Positions 2,886 through 44,689 of a stretch of DNA of 64,000 bases are shown here, in pieces. The translations under genes and the position numbers were made by a program. The notes below the pieces were generated by a model. That model ran no database searches. It was not told where the DNA came from and saw only the letters and a list, made by a program, of their open reading frames with translations. Location of the stretch: IMG/VR virus record IMGVR_UViG_3300037313_002214. One strand, written 5' to 3'. Positions within the stretch are counted from its first letter, which is position 1, and the number at the start of each line of letters is the position of its first letter. Source of the stretch: an uncultured virus (IMG/VR IMGVR_UViG_3300037313_002214) (taxonomy: Duplodnaviria > Heunggongvirae > Uroviricota > Caudoviricetes).

Positions 2886-3028
2886 ACATCCAGTTTTCGA
2901 GATCCCAGCTGACACAGGATGCATCTTAGATCCGCCTGAGGGATGCTCCATATGCAATTATTTAGTTTTATTTGCGCTCGAATAAAGAGCAATAAAGCCT
3001 CCGGCTGGTACCAAGCGCTGCCGATCGG

Positions 3029-4619: not shown

Positions 4620-4898
4620 ATGAGCGGAAAGCGGTACACAGAGGAATTCAAGATCGCGGCGGTCAAGCAGGTGGCGGAGCGCGGTCACCCGGCGAGCGAA
4701 GTCGCGGCGCGCCTGGGAGTGAGTATCCATAGCCTGTGCACCTGGACAAAGCGCTACGGCGTGCCCGAAGAGGAGCGCAAAGCGGTGGATTCCCAGGCCG
4801 AGGAAATGCGGCGCCTGAAGGCCGAGTTGAAGCGCGTCACGGAGGAGCGCGACATCTTGAAAAAGGCCGCGGTGTACTTTGCCAAGACGTCCGGGTAA
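4620..4898 (+). CDS. IS3 transposase OrfA (HTH)
   Basis: RYTEEFKIAAVKQV...ERDILKKA, typical of IS3 OrfA. Confidence 0.9.
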   Translation: MSGKRYTEEFKIAAVKQVAERGHPASEVAARLGVSIHSLCTWTKRYGVPEEERKAVDSQAEEMRRLKAELKRVTEERDILKKAAVYFAKTSG

Positions 4899-8811: not shown

Positions 8812-9167
8812 AGACTGTCGCGATCAAGTCGGGCTTGCTCACCATCGATTGGTGGGTGCGCCCGGCGATCGCACTCGTGCGCGCATGTCGCCGAATCGCG
8901 CCCGAACGCGTCGGCGCGTACCTTGATCGATGTGTCGAGCGCATCGTTGACTTTGGCATCAACCAGCGGCCTGCGCCTGCAAAACCAGCGCTGCTGCCGA
9001 CAACCGTCGCGTGGCTCGCAAATATCCGGGCCGAAGCCTCTGCGCCTGGTGCGCTCGTGGTCGTCGTGCAAGGCCCGCGCGGATCCATAGCGATCATCCC
9101 CGAAGACATAGTCGGCAAGTCCGACAACGAGCTGTTGGCATTCATCGCCGCACGGCTCGCTGAATAG
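8808..9167 (+). CDS. Phage hypothetical protein
   Basis: GTGA overlap with upstream ORF, same strand as late operon. Confidence 0.45.
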   Translation: MKTVAIKSGLLTIDWWVRPAIALVRACRRIAPERVGAYLDRCVERIVDFGINQRPAPAKPALLPTTVAWLANIRAEASAPGALVVVVQGPRGSIAIIPEDIVGKSDNELLAFIAARLAE

Positions 9168-9303
9168 TGAAAGCAGAATGGCTATCGCCTCAACCGACAT
9201 TCAGCACCGGCTGTCCTGCGATGCTGGTAACTCGTCGCGTGTCGCAATCGTCGATTTCGCCAACTTTCGTATCACTGGCGATACCGCGCTGTAAGGGCCA
9301 CTC

Positions 9304-13408: not shown

Positions 13409-15094
13409 ATGGAGTGGTCCACAGCCTGCCTCGATTGGAAAGAGCGGCTGAAGAAGGGCCAGTCCATCATTCCGCCGCCGCTGTTTCCGGAGCAGGCCGA
13501 GCATGCAGTCCACATTTTCAAGCAACTGAAGATCGTCGATGCGCCAGGGAGTCCGACATTCGGCGACGCCTGTGACCAATGGGTGTTCGACCTGGTGGCT
13601 TCGATCTTCGGCGCGTACGACGCGCGGCCCGATTCGCCCACAGAGGGGCGGCGACTGATCACCGAGTGGTTCATCCTGATCCCGAAGAAGAACTCGAAGT
13701 CGACCATCGCGGCCGGGATCATGATGACGGCGCTGATCCTGAATTGGCGCATGTCGGGCGAGTTCACGATTCTGGCGCCGACGCTGGAGGTGGCCGCGAA
13801 CTCCTTCGCGCCGAGCCGGGACATGGTGAAGCACGAGGAGGATCTGGACGACCTGATGCAGGTCCAGACCCATATCAAGACCATTACCCACCGCGGCACA
13901 TCTGCGACGCTGAAGGTGATCGCAGCTGACGCGAATACAGCTGCGGGTAAGAAGTCCGTTGGCACGCTGGTTGACGAAATCTGGCTGTTCGGTAAGCAGG
14001 CGAACGCAGAGAACATGCTTCGCGAAGCGATCGGTGGCCTAGCGTCGCGACCGGAAGGCTTCGTCATCTACCTGACGACACAGTCCGACGAGCCGCCCGC
14101 TGGCGTGTTCCGGCAGAAGCTGCAATATGCGCGCGATGTCCGCGATGGGAAGATTGTTGACGCCCGCTTCGTGCCCGTGTTGTACGAATTCCCAGAGGAG
14201 ATGATCGCCGCCGGCGAACATCTGAAACCGGAAAACTTCGGCATCGTCAATCCAAACCTCGGGTTCTCGGTGGATGCAGAATTTCTCGAGCGCGAGCTTC
14301 GCAAGGCCCAGGCCGGCGGTGAGGAATCGCTGCGTGGCTTTCTCAGTAAGCACCTCAACGTAGAAATCGGCCTGAATCTTCGGTCTGATCGTTGGCCAGG
14401 CGCCGAATTTTGGGAGCAGCAGGGAGTGCTCGAGCGGGCGTTCTCGCTTGAGGACCTGATCGCTCGATCGGAAGTCGTGACCATGGGCGGCGATGGCGGC
14501 GGCCTGGATGACTTGCTGGGGCAATATGCCATCGGTCGATGCAAGGATACGCGCCGATGGCTCGGATGGGGGCACGCCTGGGCTCACCCATCGGTACTTG
14601 AGCGGCGCAAGGAAATCGCGCCTCGGCTGCAAGACTTCGCCAAAGATGGCCACCTTACTCTCGTGAAACGCATCGGTGAGGACGTCGAGCAGTTCGCGGC
14701 TAACGTGGCCAAGGTCCACGAGGCGGGCCTGCTGAACAAGATGGGTATTGACCCCAGTGGTATCGGAGGCATTCTTGATGCGATGTTGCAGGCGGGGATT
14801 CCTGAGGATCGAATCGTCGGCATCTCACAGGGCTGGAAGCTCACCGGCCCCATCAAGACAGCTGAGCGCAAGCTCGCTGAGGGCGTGTTCGTGCATGGCG
14901 CGCAGCCGTTGATGGCTTGGTGTGTTGGCAATGCTCGTGTCGAGCCACGTGGAAACGCCATCCTTATCACGAAACAGATTTCCGGCTCGGCCAAGATCGA
15001 CCCCCTGATGGCGATGCTCAACGCGGTTGAGCTTATGTCATTGAACCCGACTGCCGACAGCGGCGAGATTACCCAGGGCTTCGTACTCCTGTAA
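13409..15094 (+). CDS. terL: Terminase large subunit
   Basis: IPKKNSKST Walker A, LVDEIW Walker B, KIDPLMA nuclease end. Confidence 0.95.
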   Translation: MEWSTACLDWKERLKKGQSIIPPPLFPEQAEHAVHIFKQLKIVDAPGSPTFGDACDQWVFDLVASIFGAYDARPDSPTEGRRLITEWFILIPKKNSKSTIAAGIMMTALILNWRMSGEFTILAPTLEVAANSFAPSRDMVKHEEDLDDLMQVQTHIKTITHRGTSATLKVIAADANTAAGKKSVGTLVDEIWLFGKQANAENMLREAIGGLASRPEGFVIYLTTQSDEPPAGVFRQKLQYARDVRDGKIVDARFVPVLYEFPEEMIAAGEHLKPENFGIVNPNLGFSVDAEFLERELRKAQAGGEESLRGFLSKHLNVEIGLNLRSDRWPGAEFWEQQGVLERAFSLEDLIARSEVVTMGGDGGGLDDLLGQYAIGRCKDTRRWLGWGHAWAHPSVLERRKEIAPRLQDFAKDGHLTLVKRIGEDVEQFAANVAKVHEAGLLNKMGIDPSGIGGILDAMLQAGIPEDRIVGISQGWKLTGPIKTAERKLAEGVFVHGAQPLMAWCVGNARVEPRGNAILITKQISGSAKIDPLMAMLNAVELMSLNPTADSGEITQGFVLL

Positions 15095-22522: not shown

Positions 22523-22845
22523 CGGAGTGCTGCCGCGCCGAGTACGAGCTGTCGGCGCGGCTCGGTGACGGCGCAACGCTACGCACCCATTTGCAACGCG
22601 CAGCGAAGAACACCGGTGAGCGAGATCCGCGGCTTAACATCCAATGGCCGCGGCTCGGCCGGGTACTCTGGGACGCCTTCCGTGGTATCGGTCGCTCAAT
22701 GACGATGAATGGGCCCGGGCCGATCACGCCGCAGGACATCTTGGCGTATCAAACACTTTACAGCGTGACGTTCACGGCGTGGGAATTGGAGGTGATCGAA
22801 GCCTTCGATGCGATCGCGCTGGAGGCGATGCACAAGAAGGAGTGA
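22494..22845 (+). CDS. Tail assembly chaperone frameshift extension (gpT-like, -1 frame)
   Basis: Overlapping -1 frame ORF (GPGPITPQDILAY...WELEVIEAFD) with no good start of its own; CTTTTTAT at the overlap. Confidence 0.7.
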
Positions 22846-22915
22846 CGGGGCGCGAAATCAGCACCCCATCTAGCGTGGATGGTGGCGGTGCGTTCCTACC
22901 CAGGCTTTGCGACCT

Positions 22916-23182
22916 TCAGCCGGCCTTTTTCTTCGCATCCGCCGCACCGGCTAATCGTTGCGCGCGCATATTCCTGATGACCGAAAGCGCGCCCTCTAAG
23001 AATAGCTTTTCGGTGTCGGTAAAGCCTTCTTCGGTCGCAAGTGAGACTTCGAGGCGAGCGACAATTTCCGCGTTCATCGAGCGATTGTTCAGCTTGGCGG
23101 ACTCGGCGATGCGGTCGCGCATCCCCTCGGGGAGGCGGACGACGAACTGCTCTGCAGTCCGGCTTGGTGGTTTTGTACTCAT
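22916..23182 (-). CDS. Arc/Mnt-family ribbon-helix-helix repressor
   Basis: [33 protein letters not shown]. Confidence 0.9.
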
Positions 23183-23195
23183 TGCCGCAACGTAC

Positions 23196-23249
23196 TAGCA
23201 AAGTGCGATATTTTCAATAATATGTAGTTGCGATCATCGCAAAGTGCGA
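23196..23249. promoter_or_regulatory. Putative Arc/Mnt operator pair in a divergent promoter
   Basis: GCAAAGTGCGA at 23198-23208 and 23239-23249 (TCGCA-aag-TGCGA palindrome); TATAGT follows. Confidence 0.55.
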
Positions 23250-23288
23250 GTATAGTGCAGGACATTGACACAGTGAAAGGAGGGCGAC

Positions 23289-23453
23289 ATGTCTCAGGTC
23301 ACGGCGCCGGTTCAGATTCAAATCCGAACGAGCGCTGCAAATAAAGACTGGCTGAAGCGAGCGGCCGACGCTCAAGAGCGATCGGTGAACTGGCTCATCC
23401 ACAAGATGTTTACCGATGCGCGTCTCGCTGAAGAGGCAAAGCAGAGTGCGTAG
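23289..23453 (+). CDS. Small Arc-like ribbon-helix-helix protein
   Basis: 54 aa, VQIQIRTSAANKDWLKRAADAQERSVNWLI; strong AGGAGG RBS; not in the ORF track. Confidence 0.75.
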   Translation: MSQVTAPVQIQIRTSAANKDWLKRAADAQERSVNWLIHKMFTDARLAEEAKQSA

Positions 23454-23531
23454 CGGGAAAGAAAAAGCCCTGATCGGCTTGGCGGCAGGATCAGGGCTCT
23501 TGGTGAATCCACAGATGAATGAGGAATCGGA

Positions 23532-23726
23532 ATGAAGACTATCACAAGTGACAACGGCGCGCAATCGAATGATGGCCTGAGCGCGCAACAGCGTGAACTC
23601 CTGGTCAACTTCAGCAACATGAGCAAGACGGCCCGTGACACGTTTTTCGCTATGTCGCGAGAGTTCGCACGGATGCTGCCGCACCACCGTCCGCAACTGA
23701 AGTTGGTCGCGGGAGGCGCAGCATGA
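23532..23726 (+). CDS. Small helical protein, similar to 51451-51648
   Basis: GAGG RBS; LSAQQRELLVNFSNMSKTAR. Confidence 0.65.
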   Translation: MKTITSDNGAQSNDGLSAQQRELLVNFSNMSKTARDTFFAMSREFARMLPHHRPQLKLVAGGAA

Positions 23727-24451
23727 ACGACATGATCACTATTGGCGGCATCGAATTGGCTCCGATCGAGTATCGCGGCCAGCGCGTGATGACGCTGGCT
23801 ATGATGGACGCGGTGCATCGTCGCCCGGAAGATACGGCTCGCCGGACTTTCAATAAGCATCGGGCTCGGCTGGTTGAAGGGGAAGATTACCACGAGGTGA
23901 CTGCGGACGAAATTCGTACGCAGTCGCTCGGCGAAGCATTCGCCCCTCGAACGCCGAAAGGCACGCTTCTGACAGAAACTGGCTATTCGATGCTGGTCAA
24001 AAGCTTCACCGACGACCTGGCATGGGATGTGCAGCGCCAGTTGGTAAAGTCGTATTTTGGCAAACAAGGAGGATTTGACCAGCTTGCTATGCTCCCGCCA
24101 GAGCAGCGCGCACTGGTGCAATTGATGTGCGAGAACGCCGAAATCAAGGCTCGCCAGACGCAAATAGAGGTGAAGCAGAGTGAGCAGGCTGAAGCTATCA
24201 AGCGTATCGAGGTCAAGCAGTCTGCCTTCGAAAACGGACATTCGTTCTTCACCGCTGTTGCCTTCTGCGCGCTGCGTGAGATCAAGCTGTCGATGCGGGA
24301 CCTGCAGCGCCTGGGCAGGAAGGCCGGTGCGATCAGTCGTAAGAAAGACATCCCGATCGATAAGGTCCGCGACGTCCGGTATGGCATGGTCAACTCGTAC
24401 CACGAGGAGACGTTGACTCAAGCCCTCAACGAAATTCATGGGGGTATGTGA
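23723..24451 (+). CDS. ORF6N-domain phage antirepressor-like protein
   Basis: IEYRGQRVMTL..MD.VH, EGEDY, LLTETGYSMLVKSFTDDLAWDVQRQLVKSYF. Confidence 0.85.
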   Translation: MNDMITIGGIELAPIEYRGQRVMTLAMMDAVHRRPEDTARRTFNKHRARLVEGEDYHEVTADEIRTQSLGEAFAPRTPKGTLLTETGYSMLVKSFTDDLAWDVQRQLVKSYFGKQGGFDQLAMLPPEQRALVQLMCENAEIKARQTQIEVKQSEQAEAIKRIEVKQSAFENGHSFFTAVAFCALREIKLSMRDLQRLGRKAGAISRKKDIPIDKVRDVRYGMVNSYHEETLTQALNEIHGGM

Positions 24452-25020
24452 TGGAAGTCTTAAAACTGAAGTTGATCGGCACCTCTCCGCTGATGATGCA
24501 CAGCGACCGGTTGGCGAATCCACTGCTGCCCGAGACAAAGGCGCATAAGTCGCTGACCGCGAAGCGCAAGAAGACCGATGAGGACCATCTGGCGATCGCG
24601 CGGTCCGAATTTATAAGTGGGCTGTATTACAGCGAGTCGGCCGGCGTGTACGTGCCAGGTCAAAATCTCGACGCAACATTTTTGGCCGGCGCCAAGTTGC
24701 AGAAGCTCGGCACAGCGTGGAAGCGAGGGGCGCTGGTCGTCACCGACCGTGTGAAATTGTTGTATGACGGCCCGCGCACACCGGAGGCGCTGTGGGAGGA
24801 CACGCGATTCGTCGACTGCCGCGGCGTCAAGGTCGGCACTGCAAAAGTGATGCGCTACCGGCCGGTGTTCATGGAGTGGGCTGCCGAACTAGAGTTGGCG
24901 TTCAACCCTGAAATCATGAATGAGGGTGAAGTCAAGAAAGCTATTGCAGATGCTGGTGCTCTGATCGGTGTTTGTGAGTATCGCCCACGTTTCGGCCGAT
25001 TTCAGGTGGCCTATGGATGA
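24448..25020 (+). CDS. Stand-alone Cas7/RAMP-like RNA-binding protein (Vipr-like)
   Basis: N-terminal strand LKLIGTSPLMMH, VYVPGQNL, C-terminal Gly-rich loop IGVCEYRPRFGRFQV; adjacent pentamer arrays. Confidence 0.7.
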   Translation: MMEVLKLKLIGTSPLMMHSDRLANPLLPETKAHKSLTAKRKKTDEDHLAIARSEFISGLYYSESAGVYVPGQNLDATFLAGAKLQKLGTAWKRGALVVTDRVKLLYDGPRTPEALWEDTRFVDCRGVKVGTAKVMRYRPVFMEWAAELELAFNPEIMNEGEVKKAIADAGALIGVCEYRPRFGRFQVAYG

Positions 25021-25480
25021 CGACGACAAAATGTCGCTACTCCCGGAGTGGCGCCAAGCTGTAAGGGACTTCCTCGCAGCCGGCTTCAAAGAGGGCGATG
25101 TGGTTTCGCACTCGTGGCTTGAAGAGCGCTTCGGCATGAAGAAGCTCGAGGATGATAGGCCACTGTTGCCGGTCGACTGGAATGCGCGCCAGTTTGAATG
25201 GCTTCGAAACATCGAGGCATTTCGAGCTGAACTGCTCGAGCAGCATCAGATTTTTTTGAGCAGCGTATTCGGCGAGGGGTACCGATTGGTGCCGCCGCGC
25301 GAGCAAACTGCGATCGCGCAAGAGCGGTTCGAGCGCGAGGCTAAGCGGTCTTATCGCAAGGCAGCTAACACGCTGAAGAACGTGCGAATTGGTGAGTTGA
25401 CCGAGTCTGAGAGGAAGGAAAATCTGGATGCGATCGCGCGCATTGCGATGCTGCGCGGCTTCCATAGGTCGATTGAGTAG
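25013..25480 (+). CDS. Accessory protein of the RAMP-like cassette
   Basis: Overlaps the RAMP gene stop; LSSVFGEGYRLVPP resembles a wHTH wing, followed by a coiled region. Confidence 0.7.
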   Translation: MDDDDKMSLLPEWRQAVRDFLAAGFKEGDVVSHSWLEERFGMKKLEDDRPLLPVDWNARQFEWLRNIEAFRAELLEQHQIFLSSVFGEGYRLVPPREQTAIAQERFEREAKRSYRKAANTLKNVRIGELTESERKENLDAIARIAMLRGFHRSIE

Positions 25481-25494
25481 GATGCCGTAACGGC

Positions 25495-25844
25495 CAGCGT
25501 CCCGCTCGCGGGGCGCTGTTCGATGCGAAAGCATCATGCGGCGGGCCTTAGCTCGGTTTGCTAAGGTCTGGCATGGTTAGGTCCGCTGAGGCTAGGTAGG
25601 CTGGGTTATGGGCTGACAACAGCGTCTAGCGCCTTCTAACGAGGGCGCTATTCGGTGCGGTACGCTGCGCTACGGTGTGTCACGGCAAGACGTGGTAAGC
25701 CGGGCCGCGGTAAGGCATGGGCTGACAACAGCAGCCAGCATCTTCAATGAGGGTGCTGGTTGATGCGGTAAGCATCGATGGCATGGTATGGTGGGCTGAG
25801 CAATGGCGAGGCATGGCCGGGTCTGGTCGACTGCGGCGAGATAG
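25495..25844 (+). ncRNA. Three tandem hairpin plus (GGY-NN)n pentamer arrays; putative guide RNAs
   Basis: Hairpins 25495-25518, 25627-25650, 25735-25759; 5-nt periodic tracts 25540-25608, 25654-25718, 25780-25844; exact 16-mer ATGGGCTGACAACAGC at 25608-25623 and 25717-25732. Confidence 0.8.
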
Positions 25845-25848
25845 TAGT

Positions 25849-25880
25849 GCACGGGAGCCCCTAATGGGGGCTTTTCGTGC
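25849..25880 (+). terminator. Hairpin/terminator closing the array
   Basis: GCACGGGAGCCCC-taat-GGGGGCTTTTCGTGC followed by TTT. Confidence 0.6.
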
Positions 25881-25927
25881 TTTGCATTTCACTGGTGTAA
25901 TATTTCCCCTCTCAACTAGGAGGGGGT

Positions 25928-26290
25928 ATGAGCTCAATCACGATTCATGCTGGAGACTTCCCAAAAGGGAAGGCATCGTTAGGGTTCGGTGTAATTACTT
26001 TCCCATGGCAACCTGGAGACGGGTTCAGTGCTGGAAACAGCGTGGTGCTAAAAAATCATCTGGAGTCCGTTGAAATCGCGTCAGAGGAGTCGGTAAAACG
26101 GGTAGGCGGAACGCTTGGGTGGGGCATAGCAGGAGCCACATTGCTCGGGCCGGTGGGTCTGCTTGCGGGGCTACTGCTTGGGGGCAAAGGCAAAGATGTG
26201 ACATTTGTGGCTGTCTTTAAGGACGGGAAAAAGATGCTTGCCACGGCCGATGCGAAAACATACACGAAATTGCAGGCCATAGTTTTTTAG
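25928..26290 (+). CDS. Hypothetical moron protein with Gly-zipper hydrophobic segment
   Basis: AGGAGG RBS, lower GC, GWGIAGATLLGPVGLLAGLLLGG; double terminator 26308-26357. Confidence 0.7.
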   Translation: MSSITIHAGDFPKGKASLGFGVITFPWQPGDGFSAGNSVVLKNHLESVEIASEESVKRVGGTLGWGIAGATLLGPVGLLAGLLLGGKGKDVTFVAVFKDGKKMLATADAKTYTKLQAIVF

Positions 26291-26369
26291 ATTCCACTTC
26301 TCAAGTGAAGCCAGCCTTGCGCTGGCTTTTTTATTGCCACCTTCGGGTGGCATTTTTATTGGAGCTCAC

Positions 26370-29300
26370 GTGATTGTTGGCGATCTCGAAATCAGATTGC
26401 GCGCAGATATTGCTCGCCTACAAAGAGACATGGATGACGCTCGCCGGGTCGTAGGCGACGCTGCCACGGCAATGGGTCGCGCTGCCGAGATGGCCAAGAA
26501 CGCGCTGGCCGGTATTGCTAGCGCCGTAGGGCTGGCGAAAATAGCCCAGATGAGTGACGAATACTCGAAGCTCACGGCCCAACTGCGCCTCGCGACAGAT
26601 AGCACTAGTGAGTATGCTCAAGCCTATGCTGACGTCAAGCGTATCGCTAACACTTCGCAGTCGGATTTGGCCGCAACTGGCTCGCTGTACGCGTCTCTCG
26701 CTCGCGCAACAAAAGATCTAGGAACGTCGCAGAAAGGCGTAGCCGATATTACCGAAGCAGTAAATCTCGGGCTGAAGATCTCAGGCGCTGGCGCTCAGGA
26801 GTCCGCGGGTGCGATCCTGCAGCTTTCGCAGGCCTTTGCAGCAGGCGCTTTAAGAGGCGATGAGTTCAATAGCGTCGCCGAGTCCGCGCCGCGTCTGATG
26901 AAGGCGCTAGCCGACAACATCGGTGTCCCAGTGGGCGCTTTGCGTACGATGGCTGAGCAGGGAAAATTAACTGCCGACGTGGTGGCTAAGGCGCTCCCTC
27001 AGGCTCTCGTACAACTGCGTGGCGAAGCTGGGCAAATTCAAACTATCGCAGGCAGCTTCGTAGTCTTAAAGAACAGCGTGCTCGAGTTCACGGGCGTACA
27101 AGCCCAGTCGAGCGGCGCCGTGACGGTGCTTACCAGCGGCATCAACCTGCTGGCGAATAATCTTAACGTCCTGGCGGGTGCGGCAGCCACAGTCGCCGCA
27201 GTGAAGCTAGGCAATTGGCTCAACGGTACCATCTCAAGTGCGACGAGCGCCTTCACCGCCAATCGGCAGTTGGCAGCGTCCACTATTGCGACGGCCGAGG
27301 CGAATGCGACCGCAACGGCGCAGGCATCGCTGCTGGCAAATGCCCGCTTGGCTGAGGTTCGCGCTGCCACGCTGGCAGCATCCGGGGAAGTGCAGCTAGC
27401 GCTGACCACCAACGCCCTTATCCCGGCTCAAGCACGTGCGGCTGCTGCAGCTGAGGCGCACGCTGTCGCCATGGGGCAGCTCACCGTAGCGCAGCGCACC
27501 GCCGCTCTCGGCGCAACGGCAGCGTCACGGATCATTGGTGGCCTTGGCGGTCCGCTTGGAGCGCTGATCACCGTGCTCGGTCTGGCAGCGACGGCGTGGT
27601 CCTGGTACAAGGAAAAGCAAGATGAAGCGACCCGTAAAGCGCAAGAGGACGTTGGTCAATCTACCAATGAGATCGTCGACAACCTAAAGCAGCAAAACGA
27701 GCAAATGCGTCAGCGGATTCAGTTGGCGCAGCGATATGGCGATATCGATGCCGCTCAAGACAGCCCCGCGCTTCAGCGCATGGCTGAGCTGCAACAAAAG
27801 ATCAACGACTTAAAGGCCCAGGGCGCCGGCATCTCGTCTGGCGATTCGGTCGCACTCATCGACTATGAGGGACAACTGTCTGACCTCAAGAAGGTCGTCG
27901 ACCAAAATAAGGAATACAAGGCAACCTTGGAGTCGACTGGCAAGGCGGCACTCGACCTCATCACTGTCCAGCAGCAGCTCGCCGGTGTGAACCAGCAGTA
28001 TCTGGATGACCTTACGAAATTAAAGGCCGCACTTGACAAGGGGGCAATTAGCCAGGGCGAATACGTCGCCGTTGTGTCGAAGCTTGCAAAGGACACATAC
28101 ACGGGCTCGACCGCTGGCAAGTTGTTTGCGCAAAGTTTGGATGCCCAGGCGGCAGCCATTGAGCGCGCTGCAGAGGCGCAGAGCCTTCGAAACCAGCGAG
28201 ATCAGGAACATATCCAGTTCCTGAAAAGCAGCGGGCAGGTAGACGACGAGGCCACGATCAGGGCGGCAGCCGCGGCACAAGTGAAGGATCTCAACGATCA
28301 GATCACGGCGCAACAAAGGCTCATGGGTGTCGAGCGGCAGCGTCAGGTCAGCGCTGAGCAAATGGCGCAGAAGCAGGCTGAAATCAACGGTAAGGTAGCT
28401 AACTTGCGCATCCAGATCGACAACGCGCAGAAAAAGCGCGACGAGGATCTGTTCCTGCTCGAGCAGCAGCGCTATCGTCAGGCTGTTGGCAACGCGGCTG
28501 ATTTGATCGAGAGTGAGCAGGCTGAGTTGGCAAGCCTTCGGCAGCAAACCCAAGCCCAAATTGACTACAACGAACAAATCGGCCTGAGCCAAACCCAGGT
28601 GGCCGCATTGACCGCGGCGCACCTTGAAGAGGCGGCAGCGCGCAAGGATGCAGAATCCGTTACGGCTGAAGGACTCGACCTCACCGGCGAGCGCGCGCAA
28701 CGCATACGCGACGAGGCAGCGGCGATCCGTGAGCGTGCTGCAGCGGTGGTCGATGGCGCGGCAAAGCAGCAGCGCTACGATCAGTGGAAGCAGGCGATCG
28801 ATCAGTATGGCCAAGTCTTCCAGCAGGGCTTCGCCGACATGCTGAACAATGGCAACGCTGGCTGGCAGTCGTTCACGAAGTCCCTCGTGACCACGTTCAA
28901 GACGTCGGTGGTCGACCAGATCTACAAAATGTTCGCTAGGCCGATTATCGTGCAGTTGGTCGGTAGCTTCATGGGCATTAGCCCGACCGCCATCGCCGGT
29001 GAGATCGCTAGCCAGCCGAACGCATATGGTGTCACCGCGAATAGTGGCTCTGGCGTTGGAAGTGCCATCAGTGCAGCACAGGTGGCGTCGACGCTTTACA
29101 AGGCCGTTAGCGGCGGGTTCTCGGCGCTGGGTACGACTGTGGCGGATGCGGTTCAGGCGGGCATGTATCAGACTGGCATGACGACGCAAATTGCTAGCAA
29201 CGGCGCTTTCGCGACCGGGGTCGGCACTGCGGCAAGCTACGGCGCTGGTGTTCTGGGTGGCCACTACATCGGCAATGCGATCGCGGGTGACTACAGTATC

Positions 29301-31457
29301 AACCATGGCCAAGCGGTTACGAGCATCGCTTCCGTAATCGGTGCGGTAATTGGTGGACCGATTGGCGGGATCATCGGCGGTGCTGTCGGTGGCCTGATCA
29401 ACCGCGCCTTCGGACATGGCTCGACCGAGGTCCAGTCTCAAGGCCTTCAAGGTACTCTCACGGCTAGCAGCCTGGCCGGCAACAGCTATCAGAATCTGCA
29501 TCAGGGTGGCGGGTGGTTCACCAGCGATCGTAACTGGAAGGACACCAAGGCGTTCACTGAACAAATGGTGGCCCAGTTCACGCAGGGGTTGGCCGCAATC
29601 GAGTCGACATCCTCGGGCTTCGCGAAAGCGCTGGGCGTGTCTGCGGATTGGGTATCTACCTACTCGAAAGACTTCAACCTGGCACTGACAGGCGATGCGG
29701 CGAAGGACCAGCAGGCCATCACGGACTTTTTCAGCGGAATCGGTGACGAGATCGCGAAGAAGCTAGTGCCGAATCTGGACCAATTCAGCAAGACTGGCGA
29801 GACTGCATCGGCGACACTCGAGCGTCTGGCCGGCGACTTCGAAGCCACTGACCAAGTCGCGCAGCTTATCGGCAAGACGGCTGCGGAGGCATTTGGTACC
29901 GCGGGCATTGAATCGGCGAAGGCGCGCGAGCAGTTGGTTAGCCTGGCTGGCAGTGCGTCGACGCTGACGTCGCAGGCGCAATCGTACGCACAGAACTATC
30001 TGACCGATTCCGAGAAGCTGGCGCCGGTGCAGAAAGCGCTTGATGCTGCGATGGCGAGCCTTGGCCTGTCGTCGATCCAGACGCGGGATCAGTTCAAGGC
30101 AGTCGTCAACTCTCTCGATCTGACGACTGAAGCCGGCGCGAAGGAGTTCACGTCCTTGATGGCCCTTGCGGATGCGTTCGCGCAGGTGCATCCGGCTGCC
30201 AACGACGCGGCGACCGCAGTTCAGAACGCAGCCGACGCACTCCAGGCGATCAAGGACTCTGCTGGCACATTGGTTGGTGACGTCGACAGTGCGTTCTCGG
30301 TGTTGCAGAAGGTGGTCGAGCGCGAGAAGACTGCAGTCCAGACGGCTATCGACGCGCACACTGCTGCGGTGAGCAAGCTGCAAAGCCTGTCTCAGTCGCT
30401 TCACAGCACCCTGAACAGCATGATGTCGCCAGATCAGCAGGCGATGGCGCGCACGGCTGGCCAGGCGCAAATTCGGGCAGCACTGGCGATCGCGAAAGCG
30501 GGCGGGCCGCTGCCGGATGCGGACTCCCTTAAGGATGCCTTGAGCGCGGTATCGAAGACGTCGACCGACCAATTCAAAACGTATCAGGACTACCTCAAGG
30601 ATCTGTATAAAACGCAGAACGACATCGCGGCGCTGGGTCAGGTCACGGATGATCAGCTTTCGGTAGAGCAGAAAGCGCTCGCGACGGCGCAGGACCAACT
30701 GAAATCGCTTGACTCGGTGCTGACGAAAGCGCAGGACCAGATCGACGTGCTGAAGGGGCAGTCCACCACTCTGCTGTCGATCGATCAAGCGATTCAGGGT
30801 CTGTCGACGGCGATCATGGCCGCGCAGGCCAATCCTGTTGTTGCGGCCACATCGACCATCAACAAGGCTTACCAGTCGTCGCTTGGTCGTGCGCCGGATG
30901 CCGCTGGCTTGGCGTACTGGCAGCAGCAGGCCGCTGCCGGCGTGTCTCCAGGCGACATTCAGAAGGCTATTTCGACGTCTCCAGAGGCGACGCTGCAAGG
31001 CATGTACCAAACTATGTTGCATCGCTCAGCCGATGCTGCGGGTCTGAATTACTGGCTCACGCAGCTGCAACACGGCGTGTCGTGGTCGGACGTCGGTAAT
31101 GCGCTGATGAACAGTGCCGAAGCGAATGGGAAGGTTCCTGGCTTCGCGTCTGGCGGTGACTTCGGTGGCGGCTGGCGCATCGTCGGTGAGAACGGCCCGG
31201 AACTGGAGGCAACAGGACCGGCGCGCATCTTCAACGCGCAGCAAACGTCGTCGCTGATGAGTCGATTGACCAGCCCAGCGAGCAACAACGATGCGCTGCT
31301 TGTCGAGCTAAAGGCTGTTCGTCAGGAACTTGCGGACCTCCGCCAGAAGAACAGCGCTGAGAACATCGCCCAGGTGAAGCAGTTGCAAACCACAGTCGAT
31401 CTGCTCACACGAGTGATCTACGGCGGCGACTCCATCCAAACCAAAGCAGTGAGCTAA
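26370..31457 (+). CDS. Tail tape measure protein
   Basis: ~1695 aa, Ala-rich; QLSQAFAAGALRGDEFNSVAE tape motif; FASGG...VGENGPEL C-terminus; GTG start after GGAG. Confidence 0.95.
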   Translation: MIVGDLEIRLRADIARLQRDMDDARRVVGDAATAMGRAAEMAKNALAGIASAVGLAKIAQMSDEYSKLTAQLRLATDSTSEYAQAYADVKRIANTSQSDLAATGSLYASLARATKDLGTSQKGVADITEAVNLGLKISGAGAQESAGAILQLSQAFAAGALRGDEFNSVAESAPRLMKALADNIGVPVGALRTMAEQGKLTADVVAKALPQALVQLRGEAGQIQTIAGSFVVLKNSVLEFTGVQAQSSGAVTVLTSGINLLANNLNVLAGAAATVAAVKLGNWLNGTISSATSAFTANRQLAASTIATAEANATATAQASLLANARLAEVRAATLAASGEVQLALTTNALIPAQARAAAAAEAHAVAMGQLTVAQRTAALGATAASRIIGGLGGPLGALITVLGLAATAWSWYKEKQDEATRKAQEDVGQSTNEIVDNLKQQNEQMRQRIQLAQRYGDIDAAQDSPALQRMAELQQKINDLKAQGAGISSGDSVALIDYEGQLSDLKKVVDQNKEYKATLESTGKAALDLITVQQQLAGVNQQYLDDLTKLKAALDKGAISQGEYVAVVSKLAKDTYTGSTAGKLFAQSLDAQAAAIERAAEAQSLRNQRDQEHIQFLKSSGQVDDEATIRAAAAAQVKDLNDQITAQQRLMGVERQRQVSAEQMAQKQAEINGKVANLRIQIDNAQKKRDEDLFLLEQQRYRQAVGNAADLIESEQAELASLRQQTQAQIDYNEQIGLSQTQVAALTAAHLEEAAARKDAESVTAEGLDLTGERAQRIRDEAAAIRERAAAVVDGAAKQQRYDQWKQAIDQYGQVFQQGFADMLNNGNAGWQSFTKSLVTTFKTSVVDQIYKMFARPIIVQLVGSFMGISPTAIAGEIASQPNAYGVTANSGSGVGSAISAAQVASTLYKAVSGGFSALGTTVADAVQAGMYQTGMTTQIASNGAFATGVGTAASYGAGVLGGHYIGNAIAGDYSINHGQAVTSIASVIGAVIGGPIGGIIGGAVGGLINRAFGHGSTEVQSQGLQGTLTASSLAGNSYQNLHQGGGWFTSDRNWKDTKAFTEQMVAQFTQGLAAIESTSSGFAKALGVSADWVSTYSKDFNLALTGDAAKDQQAITDFFSGIGDEIAKKLVPNLDQFSKTGETASATLERLAGDFEATDQVAQLIGKTAAEAFGTAGIESAKAREQLVSLAGSASTLTSQAQSYAQNYLTDSEKLAPVQKALDAAMASLGLSSIQTRDQFKAVVNSLDLTTEAGAKEFTSLMALADAFAQVHPAANDAATAVQNAADALQAIKDSAGTLVGDVDSAFSVLQKVVEREKTAVQTAIDAHTAAVSKLQSLSQSLHSTLNSMMSPDQQAMARTAGQAQIRAALAIAKAGGPLPDADSLKDALSAVSKTSTDQFKTYQDYLKDLYKTQNDIAALGQVTDDQLSVEQKALATAQDQLKSLDSVLTKAQDQIDVLKGQSTTLLSIDQAIQGLSTAIMAAQANPVVAATSTINKAYQSSLGRAPDAAGLAYWQQQAAAGVSPGDIQKAISTSPEATLQGMYQTMLHRSADAAGLNYWLTQLQHGVSWSDVGNALMNSAEANGKVPGFASGGDFGGGWRIVGENGPELEATGPARIFNAQQTSSLMSRLTSPASNNDALLVELKAVRQELADLRQKNSAENIAQVKQLQTTVDLLTRVIYGGDSIQTKAVS

Positions 31458-38606: not shown

Positions 38607-39857
38607 TTACGCTACCGCGTTTTCCCGAATAGAGGATACGCTTGCGACTGCGGCCGGCCTGGCGCAGTAGTCGGCCCATACCTGCATGAGTATCTTGCGC
38701 TTCTCGATCAGGTCGCCGCGGCGGTAGGCGGCCTCAACCTTGTCCGGCAGGCTGTGGGCGAGCGCATGTTCGCAGACCTCGCGCGGAAACGAGTTCGCCG
38801 CCGACTCCGCACACCAATCCCGGAACGTGGATCGGAAGCCGTGCACTGTGATGTCTTTGCGGCCCATTCGATGCAGCACCGCTATCATGCTGACGTTTGA
38901 AATCGTCGCTCCGTCACCGTCGCCCTGGCGCTGCCCAGGGAATACGTAGTCGCCAATCTTGGGCGATGATTTCAGTAGATCTATTGCGGTGGTCGACAAC
39001 GGTACGCGGTGTTCGCGCCCACCCTTCATCCTTTCGGCCGGAACTGTCCATATTGCGGTGTCCAGGTCGATCTCATCCCAGCGCGCGCCACGTACCTCAC
39101 CAGACCTTGCCGCCGTTAAGATGCAAAACTCCAGAGCCCTTGCCGACGATCCCTTCCGCTGGCGCAGGTCGGCCATAAAGGCGCCGATTTCTTGCCAGGG
39201 AAGGGCGGCATGGTGTTCGACCTGAACGACACGACTCGGGTCCGCCAATAAGTGGTCTAGATGGCCGCGCCACCGGGCCGGGTTTTCGCCGCCGCGATAT
39301 TTGCTGACTGTGGCCCAATCAAGGATGCTTTCCATCCGGCCCCGAATTCGCATCGCGGTCTTCGTCTTCGATTCCCATATTGGCTGCAGGATTTTGACCA
39401 CGAGAGGCGTGTCGATCGATGCCACGGGCAGAGTCCCTATTACGGGACTGACATACGTCGCAATCGTCGTCTCCCATTGGCCGGTATGCCTTGCATTCTT
39501 CCAGCCACTACGATGGGCCGCAATGTATGCCTTTGCGCAGTCATCGAACGTCATGGCCTTCGCGCGTTCAAGTGCGGCGCTCAGCTGCGCAGCCTTGCGC
39601 ATCTCCAGAGGATCTCCGCCGTCCAGGAGCGTCGCGCGGCAATCCCTGGCCTTCTCGCGAGCCTTCCCAAGCGTCACTGTGTGCACTGGTCCGAGCCCCA
39701 TCTGGCGCTCTTTGCCTCCGCGCACATACCGAAAAATCCAACTCTTTGAGCCTGTCTTGGATACCTGCAGATAAAGTCCCGCTCCATCGCCATAGTAGCC
39801 GGGTTTGTTCGCCCTATTGACCGCCATTGCCGTCAACTTCTCAACCGTCCGCGCCAC
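38607..39857 (-). CDS. int: P4-like prophage integrase with arm-binding domain
   Basis: DGAGLYLQV..GSKSWIFRY, ARSGEVRG, HGFRSTFRDW, LAH...AY; GTG start after GGAGG. Confidence 0.95.
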   Translation of the reverse strand: MARTVEKLTAMAVNRANKPGYYGDGAGLYLQVSKTGSKSWIFRYVRGGKERQMGLGPVHTVTLGKAREKARDCRATLLDGGDPLEMRKAAQLSAALERAKAMTFDDCAKAYIAAHRSGWKNARHTGQWETTIATYVSPVIGTLPVASIDTPLVVKILQPIWESKTKTAMRIRGRMESILDWATVSKYRGGENPARWRGHLDHLLADPSRVVQVEHHAALPWQEIGAFMADLRQRKGSSARALEFCILTAARSGEVRGARWDEIDLDTAIWTVPAERMKGGREHRVPLSTTAIDLLKSSPKIGDYVFPGQRQGDGDGATISNVSMIAVLHRMGRKDITVHGFRSTFRDWCAESAANSFPREVCEHALAHSLPDKVEAAYRRGDLIEKRKILMQVWADYCARPAAVASVSSIRENAVA

Positions 39858-39862
39858 TTTCC

Positions 39863-40104
39863 TACCTCCATTTCTACCCACATCGATACGCTGGATTTTA
39901 ACGCACTTTGCTGAACTATCGCGGACTGTACGATCCAGATTTTTCTAGTAGGATCATGGGGTTAGCTTACGTTGGTGAACTCTGACGAACTCATCCATAA
40001 CGGAGCTACGATCCGGACAACCTGTTCCGCTTCAACCACAATATAAAGGGCGTATAGAAAAATATTGATGTGGTTGATGCGCGTACCCCCATTTCAACCC
40101 CCAT
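39863..40104. other. Putative intact attP with arm-type repeats and a host-gene 3' end
   Basis: TACCTCCATTTCTACCCACAT (39863-39883) and TACCCCCATTTCAACCCCCAT (40084-40104) flank RSYDPDNLFRFNHNIKGV* (40001-40057). Confidence 0.65.
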
Positions 40105-41337: not shown

Positions 41338-41589
41338 TCATGCCTCCTTGGTGGCGTGCTTGCGGCCCTCGGCGATTTCACCCCACGGATCGGCGTCGGC
41401 CAGTTCGGCGTCAACGCGATCCTTCAAGATCCGAGTGAACGTGCGCGTGCTGTCGGACGTGTCGCAAAACCCACTAGTGCATTCGTAGCCGTCTGAAACG
41501 CGGAAGACGCCGTAATAAATCTGCGTCCAGCCGCCCATGCTGCGCTCGCGTGTCACGGTGATCTCGTGGCCTTTGTATATGGTCAGCAT
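41338..41589 (-). CDS. Phage hypothetical protein
   Basis: Coupled in operon. Confidence 0.6.
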   Translation of the reverse strand: MLTIYKGHEITVTRERSMGGWTQIYYGVFRVSDGYECTSGFCDTSDSTRTFTRILKDRVDAELADADPWGEIAEGRKHATKEA

Positions 41590-42515
41590 CAGGCTTCCTC
41601 CTTCCCACTGTTCTTAGGTGCAGGGGCGGCATCACTAAACCGAGCGTCGCCTGGGCAATCATATTTGTTGTCTTCGCTCGCGCTCGTAGAGCTGTTCTTG
41701 AGGCGTCGCACAAGCGTAGGCGTGGCAGCAAGCATGGCGGCCCAGCAGAGGCGTGCTCGGTGTGCAGCCTTCTGGCATCCGGTCATCCGTTCGTACTCTT
41801 CCCACTCCTCGGCTTTGCTGAAAAATGGGTCAGGCCATGACTCGAAGCCACAGGTAACCATTTCCTCGGCCGGCTCAATCGGTACCATCTGCCAGCCCTC
41901 TGGCGCTGTTCCAGCAGTGCGCCCATCGATGTAGGCGACCAGATCGCTGTAATTGCAGCGGCAGTTGAGATAGCTGCTTACAAGATTGGCGAACGCAGGC
42001 GTGTCGATGCTCACCGTCTTCCGTTCTGCCAGCTCGCGTTTCCCGGCGATGCGACCCTTTTCGCGGCCTGCAATGTGCCCATCGTCGTACCCTGTGGCAT
42101 AGGCTTCTTTCTTCTCGCGCTCAAGCTGGCGGATACGCTCTACCTGCTCGGCTACTTCAGCATTCCTTGCGTCGATGGTTTCCCCGGCGAGGGACACGGC
42201 GGCGTCGTAGGCAGCCTGCAGTTCGCGGATACGCTCGGCATACGGGGCGACGAGTTCGCCGATTTGCTTGGCGCTGTAGAATCCGATGCCATTTAACTGC
42301 ACTGCAGGGCGTGGCGGCAGTTCTTCCACGATAGGGGCGGAGACAGGAGCGGTACGGCGGGCGCGGGCTTTCCATGCCTGCCACCTGTCCTCGGTCAATT
42401 CGTCGAAGTAGTACCAGCCTGCTATGTCGTGTGCGGTGCCTTCTGTTTGCGAAGCGGTCAATTCTGCCCATTCTTCAAACGCCGTGCGCTCTGTGTCTAG
42501 GTTCAGATCAGCCAT
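41589..42515 (-). CDS. Mosaic phage early protein
   Basis: ERTAFEEW..WQAWKAR and PEGWQMVPIEP..EM...WAAMLAA modules. Confidence 0.65.
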   Translation of the reverse strand: MADLNLDTERTAFEEWAELTASQTEGTAHDIAGWYYFDELTEDRWQAWKARARRTAPVSAPIVEELPPRPAVQLNGIGFYSAKQIGELVAPYAERIRELQAAYDAAVSLAGETIDARNAEVAEQVERIRQLEREKKEAYATGYDDGHIAGREKGRIAGKRELAERKTVSIDTPAFANLVSSYLNCRCNYSDLVAYIDGRTAGTAPEGWQMVPIEPAEEMVTCGFESWPDPFFSKAEEWEEYERMTGCQKAAHRARLCWAAMLAATPTLVRRLKNSSTSASEDNKYDCPGDARFSDAAPAPKNSGKEEA

Positions 42516-42721
42516 TGGTCGACTCCTCGACATAGTTCTCTACTTGCTGCGGAAATGTGCGCCCATGCAGATGAAAGCGAGCGAAACGCTCTGCACCTTC
42601 AGCCTCGTAAATCACTTGCTCGATTGGAAGAAGTTCGCGTCCGCCGTATGCAGCGTCGAATTCGGCGTCACTCATATCAGAAATCGGCGTTTCATCCGCG
42701 CGGTCATCAGAGTAAAGTGCA

Positions 42722-43732
42722 TCACGCATTCTTCTTCTCCTGTTCAGCGCTTGCGGCGATAGCTGCGCGCTCTCGGATTGCAATGGGCACGTCGTCACAG
42801 CCGAGCCGTTCGCCAAGCTTCATGATCGCGGCATCCACGAACGGAGGCTTGCCATAGGCGACTGGCAGGCGGCGGTACAGCCACATCATCATGTTCAAGG
42901 AATCGGCCAGAAGCTTCTCATCGGTATCCTCGCCAGCATTCGATGCATGGGGTTCGACCGAATTGGCGAGGTCGTTGCACAGCATGACAAGCTGCGGCCC
43001 GCTGACGACGGTTCCGGCTTCGATGATGCCAGCCTTCACAGCGGCGGCATGGATCGCTTCGGCCAGCTTGTCGGCGTCACTTTGCGGTGCGCGGGCGAGG
43101 GCTGCGCGATGCCACGACATCACATAATCGACCAATGCCTGTCCCTCGTTGCCGACACCCTTGCAGTAGGCGATCACATGATTCCAGAACTCATCATTAT
43201 CGATGCTCGCGCTTGCCGTGGTGGCCGCAGGGGGTGCAATCTTTCCGGCGCCGTCGCACATCGAGCAATCGGCATCGTCGTAGCCGTCAAGCTGTCCGAT
43301 GTACGTTCCAACACCGTAGCAACCGGGACAAACGATCTTTTCAGCCGCTCCTGCCTGCTGTGCGGCCGGTGCGGCAAGCCTGTTGTGCAGCCTCTTGGCG
43401 TCCGCGAACAGCTTGCGCATATCGCATTCCAGGCCAGAATTCGGGCATGTGCCGTTCTCGTCGGCACAGTCACGGCACATTGGGCGCGGTCGCGCGTCCA
43501 GCGTCTCGGCGCACTCGATCAGGCGGCGCAGGGTGTAGATTTCTTCCCTCGTCGCGGCAGGTGCTTCGGGCGCGGCTTGGCGGGCAAGAGCCTCCTTCAC
43601 GTCTCGCAGATGGCACATCATCGCGGTTGCTCCATCGGTCGGCACTGGGAACTTGTCGATCCAGCGCGATACGCGGTCCAGCTTCTCGGCCAGCTTGTCC
43701 AGGTCTACGCCTGCGGTGTTATGGTTATCCAT
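42722..43732 (-). CDS. Mosaic phage early protein with Cys clusters
   Basis: CRDC, CPGC...CSMC; operon position. Confidence 0.6.
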   Translation of the reverse strand: MDNHNTAGVDLDKLAEKLDRVSRWIDKFPVPTDGATAMMCHLRDVKEALARQAAPEAPAATREEIYTLRRLIECAETLDARPRPMCRDCADENGTCPNSGLECDMRKLFADAKRLHNRLAAPAAQQAGAAEKIVCPGCYGVGTYIGQLDGYDDADCSMCDGAGKIAPPAATTASASIDNDEFWNHVIAYCKGVGNEGQALVDYVMSWHRAALARAPQSDADKLAEAIHAAAVKAGIIEAGTVVSGPQLVMLCNDLANSVEPHASNAGEDTDEKLLADSLNMMMWLYRRLPVAYGKPPFVDAAIMKLGERLGCDDVPIAIRERAAIAASAEQEKKNA

Positions 43733-44040
43733 TGTTCTGTCCTTCAGGCCGCAAGGGCAAATTCGTTGTCGTGAAGCGCGGCGCGATACGGTTGTAAAGC
43801 AGGTGGTGCACGATACGGTCGCGGAAATCCGCCGCCCATACCTCGCGCGGCTTCGGGCGCGTGATGACGAAGCAGATCGACCGCCCAGGGCGATACGTTC
43901 CGCCCAGCAGTTCGTCGCGCAGCTGAGCTAAGTTGCGCTCTTGGTTTTGTTCGAACGCGATAGCGCTGGCGGAGCTGCGCTTCGCATGGCGGCAGTCCAG
44001 ATAGGCCTGTACAAGTTCATCGAAAGAAAAGTCAGCATGG
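43725..44040 (-). pseudogene. Truncated DGR reverse transcriptase (N-terminal ~90 aa only)
   Basis: ELVQAYLDCRHAKR...TYRPG...KPREVWAADFRDRIVHHLL, then a stop ~15 codons after IAPRF; no YxDD. Confidence 0.9.
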
Positions 44041-44053
44041 TGGCGGCCGGGAT

Positions 44054-44163
44054 AATCTGCGGACGGCGCGGGCGCGCAACTCGGCCGACTTGTTGTTGTT
44101 GTTCTGGTTGCCGTTGTTGAAGTTCTGATTCCAGGCATATTCATCGTTGGAAGCGTGCTGCGT
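44054..44163 (-). ncRNA. DGR template repeat (TR)
   Basis: AAC-rich 110-bp repeat that differs from both VRs only at adenines. Confidence 0.95.
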
Positions 44164-44335
44164 TTGTTCGTGCTATCTACGTCACCCCTCCGAAGGTCGC
44201 CTTGACCGATCAGCGGGGAAACTGCGCCAGACGGTCCCGAACTATGTCGGGAGGTCCCTGCTATGCGCATGGCGGTGGCCTTATGAGCCAGCGGCACGAC
44301 CAGATTAAGAAATCGCTCAGTCATGGCAGCCTTGA

Positions 44336-44689
44336 CTACCGTGAAGCGGGCGATGCGGAACGGCGCCAACCACTTGCCTGCTTGCCGATGCTGGTCGTGA
44401 GCTCGACTGCGGCGGCATACTGCTTCGTCGATATCAGGCGCTTGTCGCGCGAGAGACGAATCAGCAGTTCTGCCACCTGCAGACGCTCGACGAGATCCTG
44501 CAGGTGCGCCGCCTTTTCCCGGGCGACGTTGGCCCGGTAAATCAGGGTTACGATCTCCACGACTTCATCGCGAATCTTTCCGCCGATCGATGCCTTGAAA
44601 TCACGCGGCATGTTCTTGGCGAGGTCCGTGACGACGTCGAGGAGGTCATACGCCACCCTGTAAATCGGCAAGCTTGTGTGGAGTGCCAT
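44336..44689 (-). CDS. avd: DGR accessory variability determinant (four-helix bundle)
   Basis: 117 aa, basic; LPIYRVAYDL, IGKQASGW; lies between VR and TR. Confidence 0.9.
   Translation of the reverse strand: MALHTSLPIYRVAYDLLDVVTDLAKNMPRDFKASIGGKIRDEVVEIVTLIYRANVAREKAAHLQDLVERLQVAELLIRLSRDKRLISTKQYAAAVELTTSIGKQASGWRRSASPASR

Follow-up and report, generated by a model that had tools for sequence, protein, structure and literature searches.

A predicted type II-like VIPR cassette in a temperate soil siphophage carries a guide matching the tape-measure start of VIPR-less siblings

Introduction

Why would a repetitive array in a phage genome spell, at two of every three letters, the beginning of the gene that follows it? 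This question is raised by the uncultured virus IMGVR_UViG_3300037313_002214, a member of the Caudoviricetes, of which a stretch of 64,000 nucleotides (hereafter the window, i.e., the whole stretch of DNA that was analyzed) holds three plus-strand arrays of G[GC][TC]NN pentamers within positions 25490-25880, upstream of a tape-measure gene. An earlier note, made from the letters alone, had proposed that the dinucleotides of the third array read as the 5' end of this gene in a code that matches two bases and skips the next. We consider it likely that the arrays belong to a VIPR cassette of a temperate soil siphophage and that one of its RNAs, vrRNA3, silences sibling phages devoid of VIPR while the resident tape-measure allele is spared.

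The VIPR mechanism has already been published in 2026, and the locus described here adds another member. According to the passages of the preprints cited here, VIPR is composed of the small RAMP protein Vipr, the accessory protein Vap and vrRNAs, in each of which a conserved 3' tail follows 9-16 YNNGG repeats; the NN pairs of the repeats specify a double-stranded DNA target whose every third base, usually the codon wobble position, is skipped; both strands can be targeted without a protospacer adjacent motif, and binding represses transcription (bioRxiv 10.64898/2026.04.26.720920). Structures solved by cryo-electron microscopy (cryo-EM) include a gapped R-loop, the pairing of which begins in the tail-proximal half of the guide (10.64898/2026.04.26.720927), and satellites and solo vrRNAs are treated in a further preprint (10.64898/2026.10.15.759431). 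Natural targets are called with an identity cut-off of 0.8 (10.64898/2026.04.26.720920, 10.64898/2026.10.15.759431).

Results

The third array and the resident tape-measure gene

Array 3 occupies 25775-25839 and is made up of 13 units in 5-base steps (TCGAT GGCAT GGTAT GGTGG GCTGA GCAAT GGCGA GGCAT GGCCG GGTCT GGTCG ACTGC GGCGA), with 11 of the 13 triplets fitting G[GC][TC]; the first unit is non-canonical because its TC belongs to the stem of the preceding hairpin. Reading in 5-base steps from 25775 yields the NN string AT AT AT GG GA AT GA AT CG CT CG GC GA, exactly as the earlier note had given it. The resident tape-measure gene starts at 26370 with GTG ATT GTT GGC GAT CTC GAA ATC AGA TTG CGC GCA GAT, and when the NN string is laid on positions one and two of its codons 1-13, 21 of the 26 bases agree (80.8%), with 8 of the 13 dinucleotides and all 13 second positions being identical. 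These figures had been part of the note as well and were reproduced by a recount and a window scan, whereas its site end of 26408 had to be corrected to 26407, where the 13-unit site ends. The five mismatches affect first codon positions only, namely those of codons 1, 3, 6, 9, and 10, and the match amounts to 83% when the doubtful first unit is left out.

In a two-on, one-off scan of both strands of the window, position +26370 received the top score (21), with runners-up at 18 and 17. Skips of 0 and 2 bases gave at best 17 and 18, respectively, and a 3-base skip reached 26 in the window only by matching array 3 itself. Arrays 1 and 2 produced no outlier in the window scan (best 15/24 and 17/26). 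Among shuffled array 3 guides, 4 of 2000 with shuffled units and 2 of 2000 with shuffled bases attained 21 anywhere in the window, which is close to the chance estimate of about 1e-3 made in the note; beyond these few, shuffled guides did not give the equally good matches that the note had named as evidence against its claim. The match between array 3 and the tape-measure gene is real, and chance is an unlikely source of it.

Exact matches in sibling phages

The true targets lie elsewhere, and the resident gene, which is related to them but mismatched, is not the best target. When viral contigs were searched for exact occurrences of the gapped pattern of units 2-13 (24 specified bases), a search for related phages that the earlier note had suggested, 28 matches were obtained, each of them at the ATG of a tape-measure gene. 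All 28 start three bases past an ATG, and therefore all 13 units match (26/26). Each match opens a long frame starting MIIGDMEIRLRADIARLQRDMD, the product of which is a homologue of the resident tape-measure protein, and the 28 contigs comprise 26 distinct 108-base sequences. Across these targets, 10 of the 12 skipped positions vary, the other two being the G of ATG codons; therefore, the wobble-blind code covers alleles that differ by silent drift. In the genome collection, one exact match was present, at the start of a 1512-codon frame of Pseudoduganella rivuli FT92W (Oxalobacteraceae). In five target phage genomes, a 1-base skip alone gives 26/26, and skips of 0, 2, and 3 bases give 16-19.

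The target phages share the tail module of the window. In the best-matching sibling loci, the identity amounts to 85-91% for the major tail protein and 88-92% for the chaperone, and the tape-measure gene directly follows the chaperone genes. Of the five whole target genomes, four encode a major tail protein with 81-87% identity and the fifth (G005) gave no match for it; the head genes of the target phages are more distant from those of the window than the tail genes are. Neither vipr nor vap nor arrays were found in the five target genomes, three of which are at least 98% complete. Judged from these matches, the vrRNA3 guide represents the first 13 tape-measure codons of VIPR-less siblings that share the tail module.

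The match-two, skip-one code with its skip at the wobble position, as formulated in the note, equals the published 1-nt skip rule of VIPR vrRNAs (bioRxiv 10.64898/2026.04.26.720920). Likewise, the agreement of the array with the sense strand, which the note had taken to mean pairing with template-strand DNA, is compatible with DNA targeting on either strand, as published, and with the gapped R-loop of the cryo-EM structures (10.64898/2026.04.26.720927). The VIPR recognition code was recovered here from raw sequence alone, without database searches, and led directly to natural targets; the published skip rule thus also holds for soil phages that are distant from the models E. coli and Pseudomonas. 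None of the published passages cited here describes a guide that, like vrRNA3, addresses the first codons of a structural gene of siblings, the tape measure.

It is extremely improbable that the resemblance arose by chance or that the arrays are a protein-binding repeat RNA with meaningless spacers. The TRAP binding site resembles the arrays in its 5-base period, its conserved triplet, and its 2-base spacers. Nevertheless, a TRAP-like ring on GGY triplets was rejected on the grounds of the rarity of shuffles that reach 21, the 28 exact 24-base gapped matches, which all lie at one gene start, and the neighbouring protein being a Vipr homologue (see below).

The resident allele among its relatives

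The tape-measure family was sampled with a degenerate pattern for codons 12-22 only, which is independent of the first 11 codons and replaced a search with the tape-measure N-terminus that gave only 6 loci. In the resulting 47 contigs, the vrRNA3 match amounts to 26 in 28 contigs, 25 in 11, 24 in three, 23 in three, and 21 in two. All 45 non-carriers score 23-26, none of them exceeding three mismatches, and the two contigs scoring 21 are the phage lineage of the window itself, identical in the region and the only ones with arrays upstream. The resident allele differs from the target by GTG/ATG, GTT/ATY, CTC/ATG, AGA/CGN, and TTG/CTN (resident/target), with the GTG start and the CTC at codon 6 being found in the carrier only among the 47 contigs. 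The protein is left unchanged by three of the five differences (the alternative start, CGN to AGA, CTN to TTG), and a code that is blind to the wobble position detects no other kinds of silent change. In 11 genes of the window, AGR accounts for 6.6% of Arg codons and TTR for 16.5% of Leu codons. Additionally, two of the mismatched units (9 and 10) belong to the half of the guide next to the tail, in which pairing starts (bioRxiv 10.64898/2026.04.26.720927). The resident allele is most likely spared from vrRNA3, because five of the read bases differ, and these five mismatches would have to suffice for self-sparing. If they do protect the carrier, the allele pair constitutes a natural test of VIPR mismatch tolerance.

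Several observations weigh against this interpretation, in particular against a selected escape of the resident allele. With 80.8%, the resident site lies at or just above the cut-off of 0.8 used for natural targets in the cited passages of the preprints, and weak self-binding is possible. At the read positions, the first 13 codons diverge at 5 of 26 bases as compared to 18-49% over whole alignments, and sliding 13-codon windows against 30 homologues revealed no excess divergence at the site; therefore, the five mismatches may be ordinary drift of a distant allele and not selected escape. The tape-measure genes are diverged overall (32-75% amino acid identity), AGA is also present at codon 19 of the resident gene, i.e., outside the site, and the 5' end of this gene is generally richer in A+T. 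In the 45 non-carriers, GTY at codon 3 occurs in nine contigs, AGG at codon 9 in two, and TTR at codon 10 in three, in each case singly. Furthermore, the 47 contigs are related and not phylogenetically independent, and vrRNA3 is devoid of the canonical GGGCUGACAACAGC tail. The pattern fits a carrier whose site drifted, or was selected, away from the guide, and the cassette may also reside in a lineage whose allele already differed. Four DNA sequencing runs with parts of the window contained short near-identical contigs only and no guide-target variant, and no RNA sequencing run was listed as containing the stretch.

The borderline self match also bears on autoregulation, in which vrRNA3 would bind its own tape-measure start weakly and thereby quiet the tail genes in the lysogen or time their expression. 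When each guide was compared with its own locus, with 200 unit shuffles as the null, three guides stood out: vrRNA3 of the window, the last guide of a related locus (L056), and the guide of Pseudomonas phage Medea1. The L056 guide matches with 18/20, in antisense, the end of a 211-aa gene that precedes chaperone-size genes and a tape-measure gene. These significant self near-matches to tail genes in L056 (18/20) and Medea1 (19/24), together with a self match that reaches the cut-off of the preprints and a site in the first gene after the cassette, are in line with self-control. A guide for self-control should, however, fit its own gene best, whereas vrRNA3 is perfect for 28 other phages and the resident gene fits worst of the 47; moreover, mismatched units 9 and 10 are located where pairing starts (bioRxiv 10.64898/2026.04.26.720927), and the cited passages report guides that spare their own contig or locus (10.64898/2026.04.26.720920, 10.64898/2026.10.15.759431). 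We therefore regard autoregulation as improbable and retain the silencing of siblings as the preferred role of vrRNA3.

The three vrRNAs and their tails

The three arrays are the guides of three predicted vrRNAs on the plus strand. vrRNA1 (25521-25654) comprises the hairpin GATGC GAAA GCATC, 12-15 GGY-NN units (25540/25550-25609; the 5' limit of the guide is uncertain), and the tail GGGCTGACAACAGC with a hairpin. vrRNA2 (25654-25761) comprises 13 GGY-NN units (25654-25718) followed by GGGCTGACAACAGC and a hairpin, so that both modules end in the canonical tail, GGGCUGACAACAGC plus hairpin. vrRNA3 (25762-25880) comprises the hairpin GATGC GGTAA GCATC, the 13 units of array 3 (25775-25839), and the tail GATAGTAGTGCAC with a long G+C-rich hairpin that is U-rich on its 3' side. 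In our reading, this 3' hairpin would act as a terminator; the consensus terminator scan did not list it. A set of 30 related tails shares a 4-pair and a 13-pair hairpin, with compensatory changes at 13 of the 17 predicted pairs.

The tail of vrRNA3 differs from those of the other two modules and its first unit is non-canonical, as would be expected if vrRNA3 were a degenerate or orphan guide, a decoy that no longer loads Vipr and whose tape-measure match is a relic. On the other hand, all 13 NN pairs are intact with respect to the 28 targets and no more than two of the 13 triplets depart from G[GC][TC]. Moreover, the tail of vrRNA3 resembles those of Escherichia phage SUSP1 (GGATGGTAGTAGCCAC), which are functional and for which a pseudoknot is described according to the cited passages of the VIPR preprints, and the last module of L056 has a tail of the same type. 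A dead guide thus appears quite improbable, and an active vrRNA3 remains the preferred reading.

No viral contig was matched by arrays 1 and 2, either with exact full patterns or with exact 10-unit 3' parts, and no metagenome contig was matched by exact 11-unit parts. With up to three mismatches, no target was detected for array 2 in five target phage records or for either array in 401 genomes from the family to which the Pseudoduganella genome belongs. When the five target genomes were scanned in full, the best scores of both arrays stayed within the range of shuffles, and a comparison with the collected related loci returned no target either. As the searches of the collections were exact and the others allowed up to three mismatches, any target that deviates more strongly, or that is read by a guide with different limits, would be missed.

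A 203-base contig from a soil metagenome (run X18) carries the vrRNA1 tail and most of vrRNA2 with one letter different, and other GGY-NN units before 25609. This would be a natural guide swap in which the tail was kept.

The cassette and its insertion

By its sequence, the locus is a type II-like VIPR cassette, accompanied by regulators of its own and one small cargo gene on an insertion of approximately 3.5 kb (22850-26344, plus strand). The insertion separates the tail-chaperone (G/GT) genes from the tape-measure gene (26370-31457, plus strand; 1695 aa; PHROG tape-measure families, best E 2.4e-92). In blastn comparisons with five sibling loci, a similarity of 78-82% runs up to window position 22830-22849 and resumes at 26345-26371 in three of them (L193, L213, L212), with no second piece in the other two (L186, L176); in the siblings, both insertion ends are only about 10-35 bases apart. 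The near-target of vrRNA3 starts 25 bases past the right end of the insertion. The insert contains a divergent control region, an anti-repressor-like gene, vipr, vap, the three vrRNAs, and a small gene.

vipr (24448-25020, plus strand) encodes a protein of 190 aa with a RAMP fold that shares 43% identity with SUSP1 Vipr (E 1e-56). The gene of the SUSP1 homologue sits between two intergenic regions full of GGT-NN repeats, in the layout described in the preprint. An AlphaFold2 model of Vipr, built on 11 sequences, reached a pLDDT of 90.2, and the matches listed by Foldseek for the Protein Data Bank (E from 2.3e-4, template modelling scores 0.31-0.52) are all entries for CRISPR-Cas effector complexes (Csm and Cmr of type III, and type VII) or for Csm3 and Cas6. 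As counted by hand on one pairwise alignment, the SUSP1 Vipr residues H17, K33, R39, K82, R138, and R179, which contact the GGY of the RNA or the DNA strands and are named in the cited part of bioRxiv 10.64898/2026.04.26.720927, are identical here (H18, K34, R40, K83, R138, R179); D177 and W178 are replaced conservatively (E177, Y178), and E71, M72, and K88 differ (Q72, N73, T89). The longest open reading frame (ORF) for vap (24968-25480, plus strand) shares 32% identity over 116 aa (E 4e-18) with the SUSP1 gene that follows vipr and belongs to PHROG 5926; translation probably begins at the ATG at 25013, and the overlap with the vipr stop would then amount to 8 bases, an arrangement shared with Medea1. 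Neither Vipr nor Vap had a match in Pfam, NCBIfam or PADLOC.

The pair recurs in other viruses: tblastn detected vipr and vap in 11 other viral loci each, 10 of which have both, before or after GGY-NN arrays. The 14-base motif GGGCTGACAACAGC was found at 118 loci of viral contigs, 17 of which carry pentamer arrays beside the motif, and 11 of these carry vipr. No cas families were recognized among the five cassette proteins by PADLOC, Pfam or NCBIfam, and the cassette is without a CRISPR-type repeat. A search of 24500-27000 against all Rfam families with E up to 10 gave nothing on the arrays and weak rows on terminators only, among them CRISPR-DR28 with 18.6 bits against a gathering score of 35. 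The array region had no blastn match in the phage collection.

The remaining genes of the insertion lie to both sides of this core. A gene for an anti-repressor-like protein with an ORF6N domain is located just 5' of vipr (23723-24451, plus strand; PHROG anti-repressor families, best E 3e-35; Pfam ORF6N, E 7.9e-14), and the last gene of the insertion encodes a small protein of 120 aa and unknown function (25928-26290, plus strand; PHROG 12025, E 8.8e-24), followed by terminator-like hairpins at 26307-26329 and 26335-26352 in the terminator scan. In the divergent control region at the left of the cassette, the consensus scan detected a promoter-like site by consensus match only (TTGCGA, 17 bases, TATAGT; 23228-23256, plus strand; 9/12 matches). 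The vrRNAs may be co-transcribed with vipr and vap, because the consensus scan detected no promoter-like site at 23500-26500.

At the left edge of the insertion, the C-terminal 65-69 aa or so of a 184-aa ORF (22644-23198) resemble the stretch before the sibling tape-measure gene (43-57% identity); this C-terminal part may be a piece of the chaperone gene that was duplicated when the cassette entered. One of the siblings, L212, has a different insert of approximately 2.1 kb without arrays (2282-4442) at the junction of chaperone and tape-measure genes, which seems to be a hot spot for cargo.

Discussion

Following the published mechanism, as far as it is described in the cited passages of the preprints, we propose that Vipr protomers would coat the vrRNA, one per GGY-NN repeat, with each GGY being hidden and the NN pairs facing double-stranded DNA. 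Each NN would pair with two target bases, the third being flipped out, and the R-loop would extend from the tail end of the guide toward its 5' end, after which the bound complex would block transcription. Provided that vrRNA3 is expressed and forms such a complex, its binding to the tape-measure start of a sibling would switch off that gene and, probably, the tail genes downstream of it, and a co-resident or superinfecting sibling would be crippled.

The position of the site next to the insertion point allows a further, tentative interpretation, which we think unlikely though worth stating: the cassette and the altered tape-measure start might form a linked unit of weapon and immunity, like a homing element without a nuclease. 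The guide would then silence the tail operon of every sibling with an empty site, 25 bases from the insertion point, and a sibling would escape only by recombining in the 5' end of the carrier's tape-measure gene and dragging the cassette along. If this were true, VIPR cassettes would spread through the phage population by silencing-driven marker exclusion, and L056 and Medea1, where guides nearly match tail genes close by, would bear the same signature. As with homing endonuclease genes and marker exclusion, the target of the cassette is found in the cassette-less allele next to the insertion point and the allele of the carrier is changed at the site. Unlike homing endonucleases, VIPR is without a nuclease and without break-driven copying, and the drive would come from silencing alone; the comparison is one of analogy and not of membership.

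In this clade, VIPR seems to be commonly directed at the structural genes of relatives. The guides of two further loci (L083 and L117) match the host-specificity gene of Medea1 with 20/22 and 19/22, respectively. A 9-unit guide of another locus (L014) matches the target phage G003 with 18/18 and the large-terminase gene of the window (13409-15094) with 17/18, at approximately 13463-13488 on the minus strand (coordinates recounted by hand) with the skips on wobble positions. The phage of the window may itself be aimed at by another VIPR.

Elsewhere in the window, a 214-aa ORF on the minus strand within 41589-44369 belongs to a PHROG reverse-transcriptase family (E 2.6e-28) and lies beside two ORFs of unknown function; this region could be a retron-like or other reverse transcriptase-based defence module in the same prophage. 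Moreover, a second integrase gene (3029-4225, minus strand) and a transposase gene (4736-5770, plus strand) are present at 3029-5770, apart from the integrase gene at 38607-39881.

With the backbones of Class 1 CRISPR systems (Cas7/Csm3 filaments), the cassette shares the RAMP fold and, following the cited parts of the preprints, one protomer per guide step with periodic base flipping as well as repression by binding only. Unlike Class 1 CRISPR, VIPR has neither CRISPR repeats and spacers nor adaptation genes, the guide step is 5 as compared to a target step of 3, and two of five guide bases pair.

The closest known system is the type II VIPR of SUSP1 and of a Pseudomonas fulva prophage, as far as the preprints describe it in the passages cited (bioRxiv 10.64898/2026.04.26.720920, 10.64898/2026.04.26.720927, 10.64898/2026.10.15.759431). 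The vipr-vap pair, GGY-NN vrRNAs with a structured 3' tail, the 1-base skip at the wobble position, targets in competing mobile elements, and a cassette without a nuclease gene are common to both. By contrast, the host is here probably a soil member of the Oxalobacteraceae and not an Enterobacteria or Pseudomonas host, the cassette lies inside the tail module, two tail types occur in one set of arrays, and the target comprises tape-measure codons 1-13 of siblings instead of a satellite recombinase or a lysis-lysogeny regulator. Furthermore, the carrier holds a target homologue of 80.8% beside its cassette, whereas the first preprint reports, in the passage cited, no self match of at least 80% in the clades tested (10.64898/2026.04.26.720920). 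Also new with respect to the published passages are the self match of the carrier at the 0.8 borderline, with changes that resemble escape, and the location of this allele beside the cassette at the insertion junction. The vrRNA modules of L056 resemble the solo vrRNAs of the cited part of 10.64898/2026.10.15.759431: vipr and vap had no match in the 5-kb L056 piece, which carries, in minus orientation, two vrRNA modules at approximately 2446-2620 before the tape-measure gene, with the site on the plus strand at 4363-4392, 1.9 kb upstream.

Among phages, the closest Vipr is that of Pseudomonas phage Medea1 (MW862109.1, our locus L120) with 71.8% identity. Its VIPR cassette, not annotated as such in the record (positions of interest 8995-10234 and 4752), contains one vrRNA instead of three between the tail-tip genes K and I. 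As in the window, a regulator, an Arc-like protein, an anti-repressor (Rha in Medea1), vipr, vap, vrRNA, and a small gene lie in this order inside the tail genes, and the guide nearly matches the phage's own tape-measure gene (19/24).

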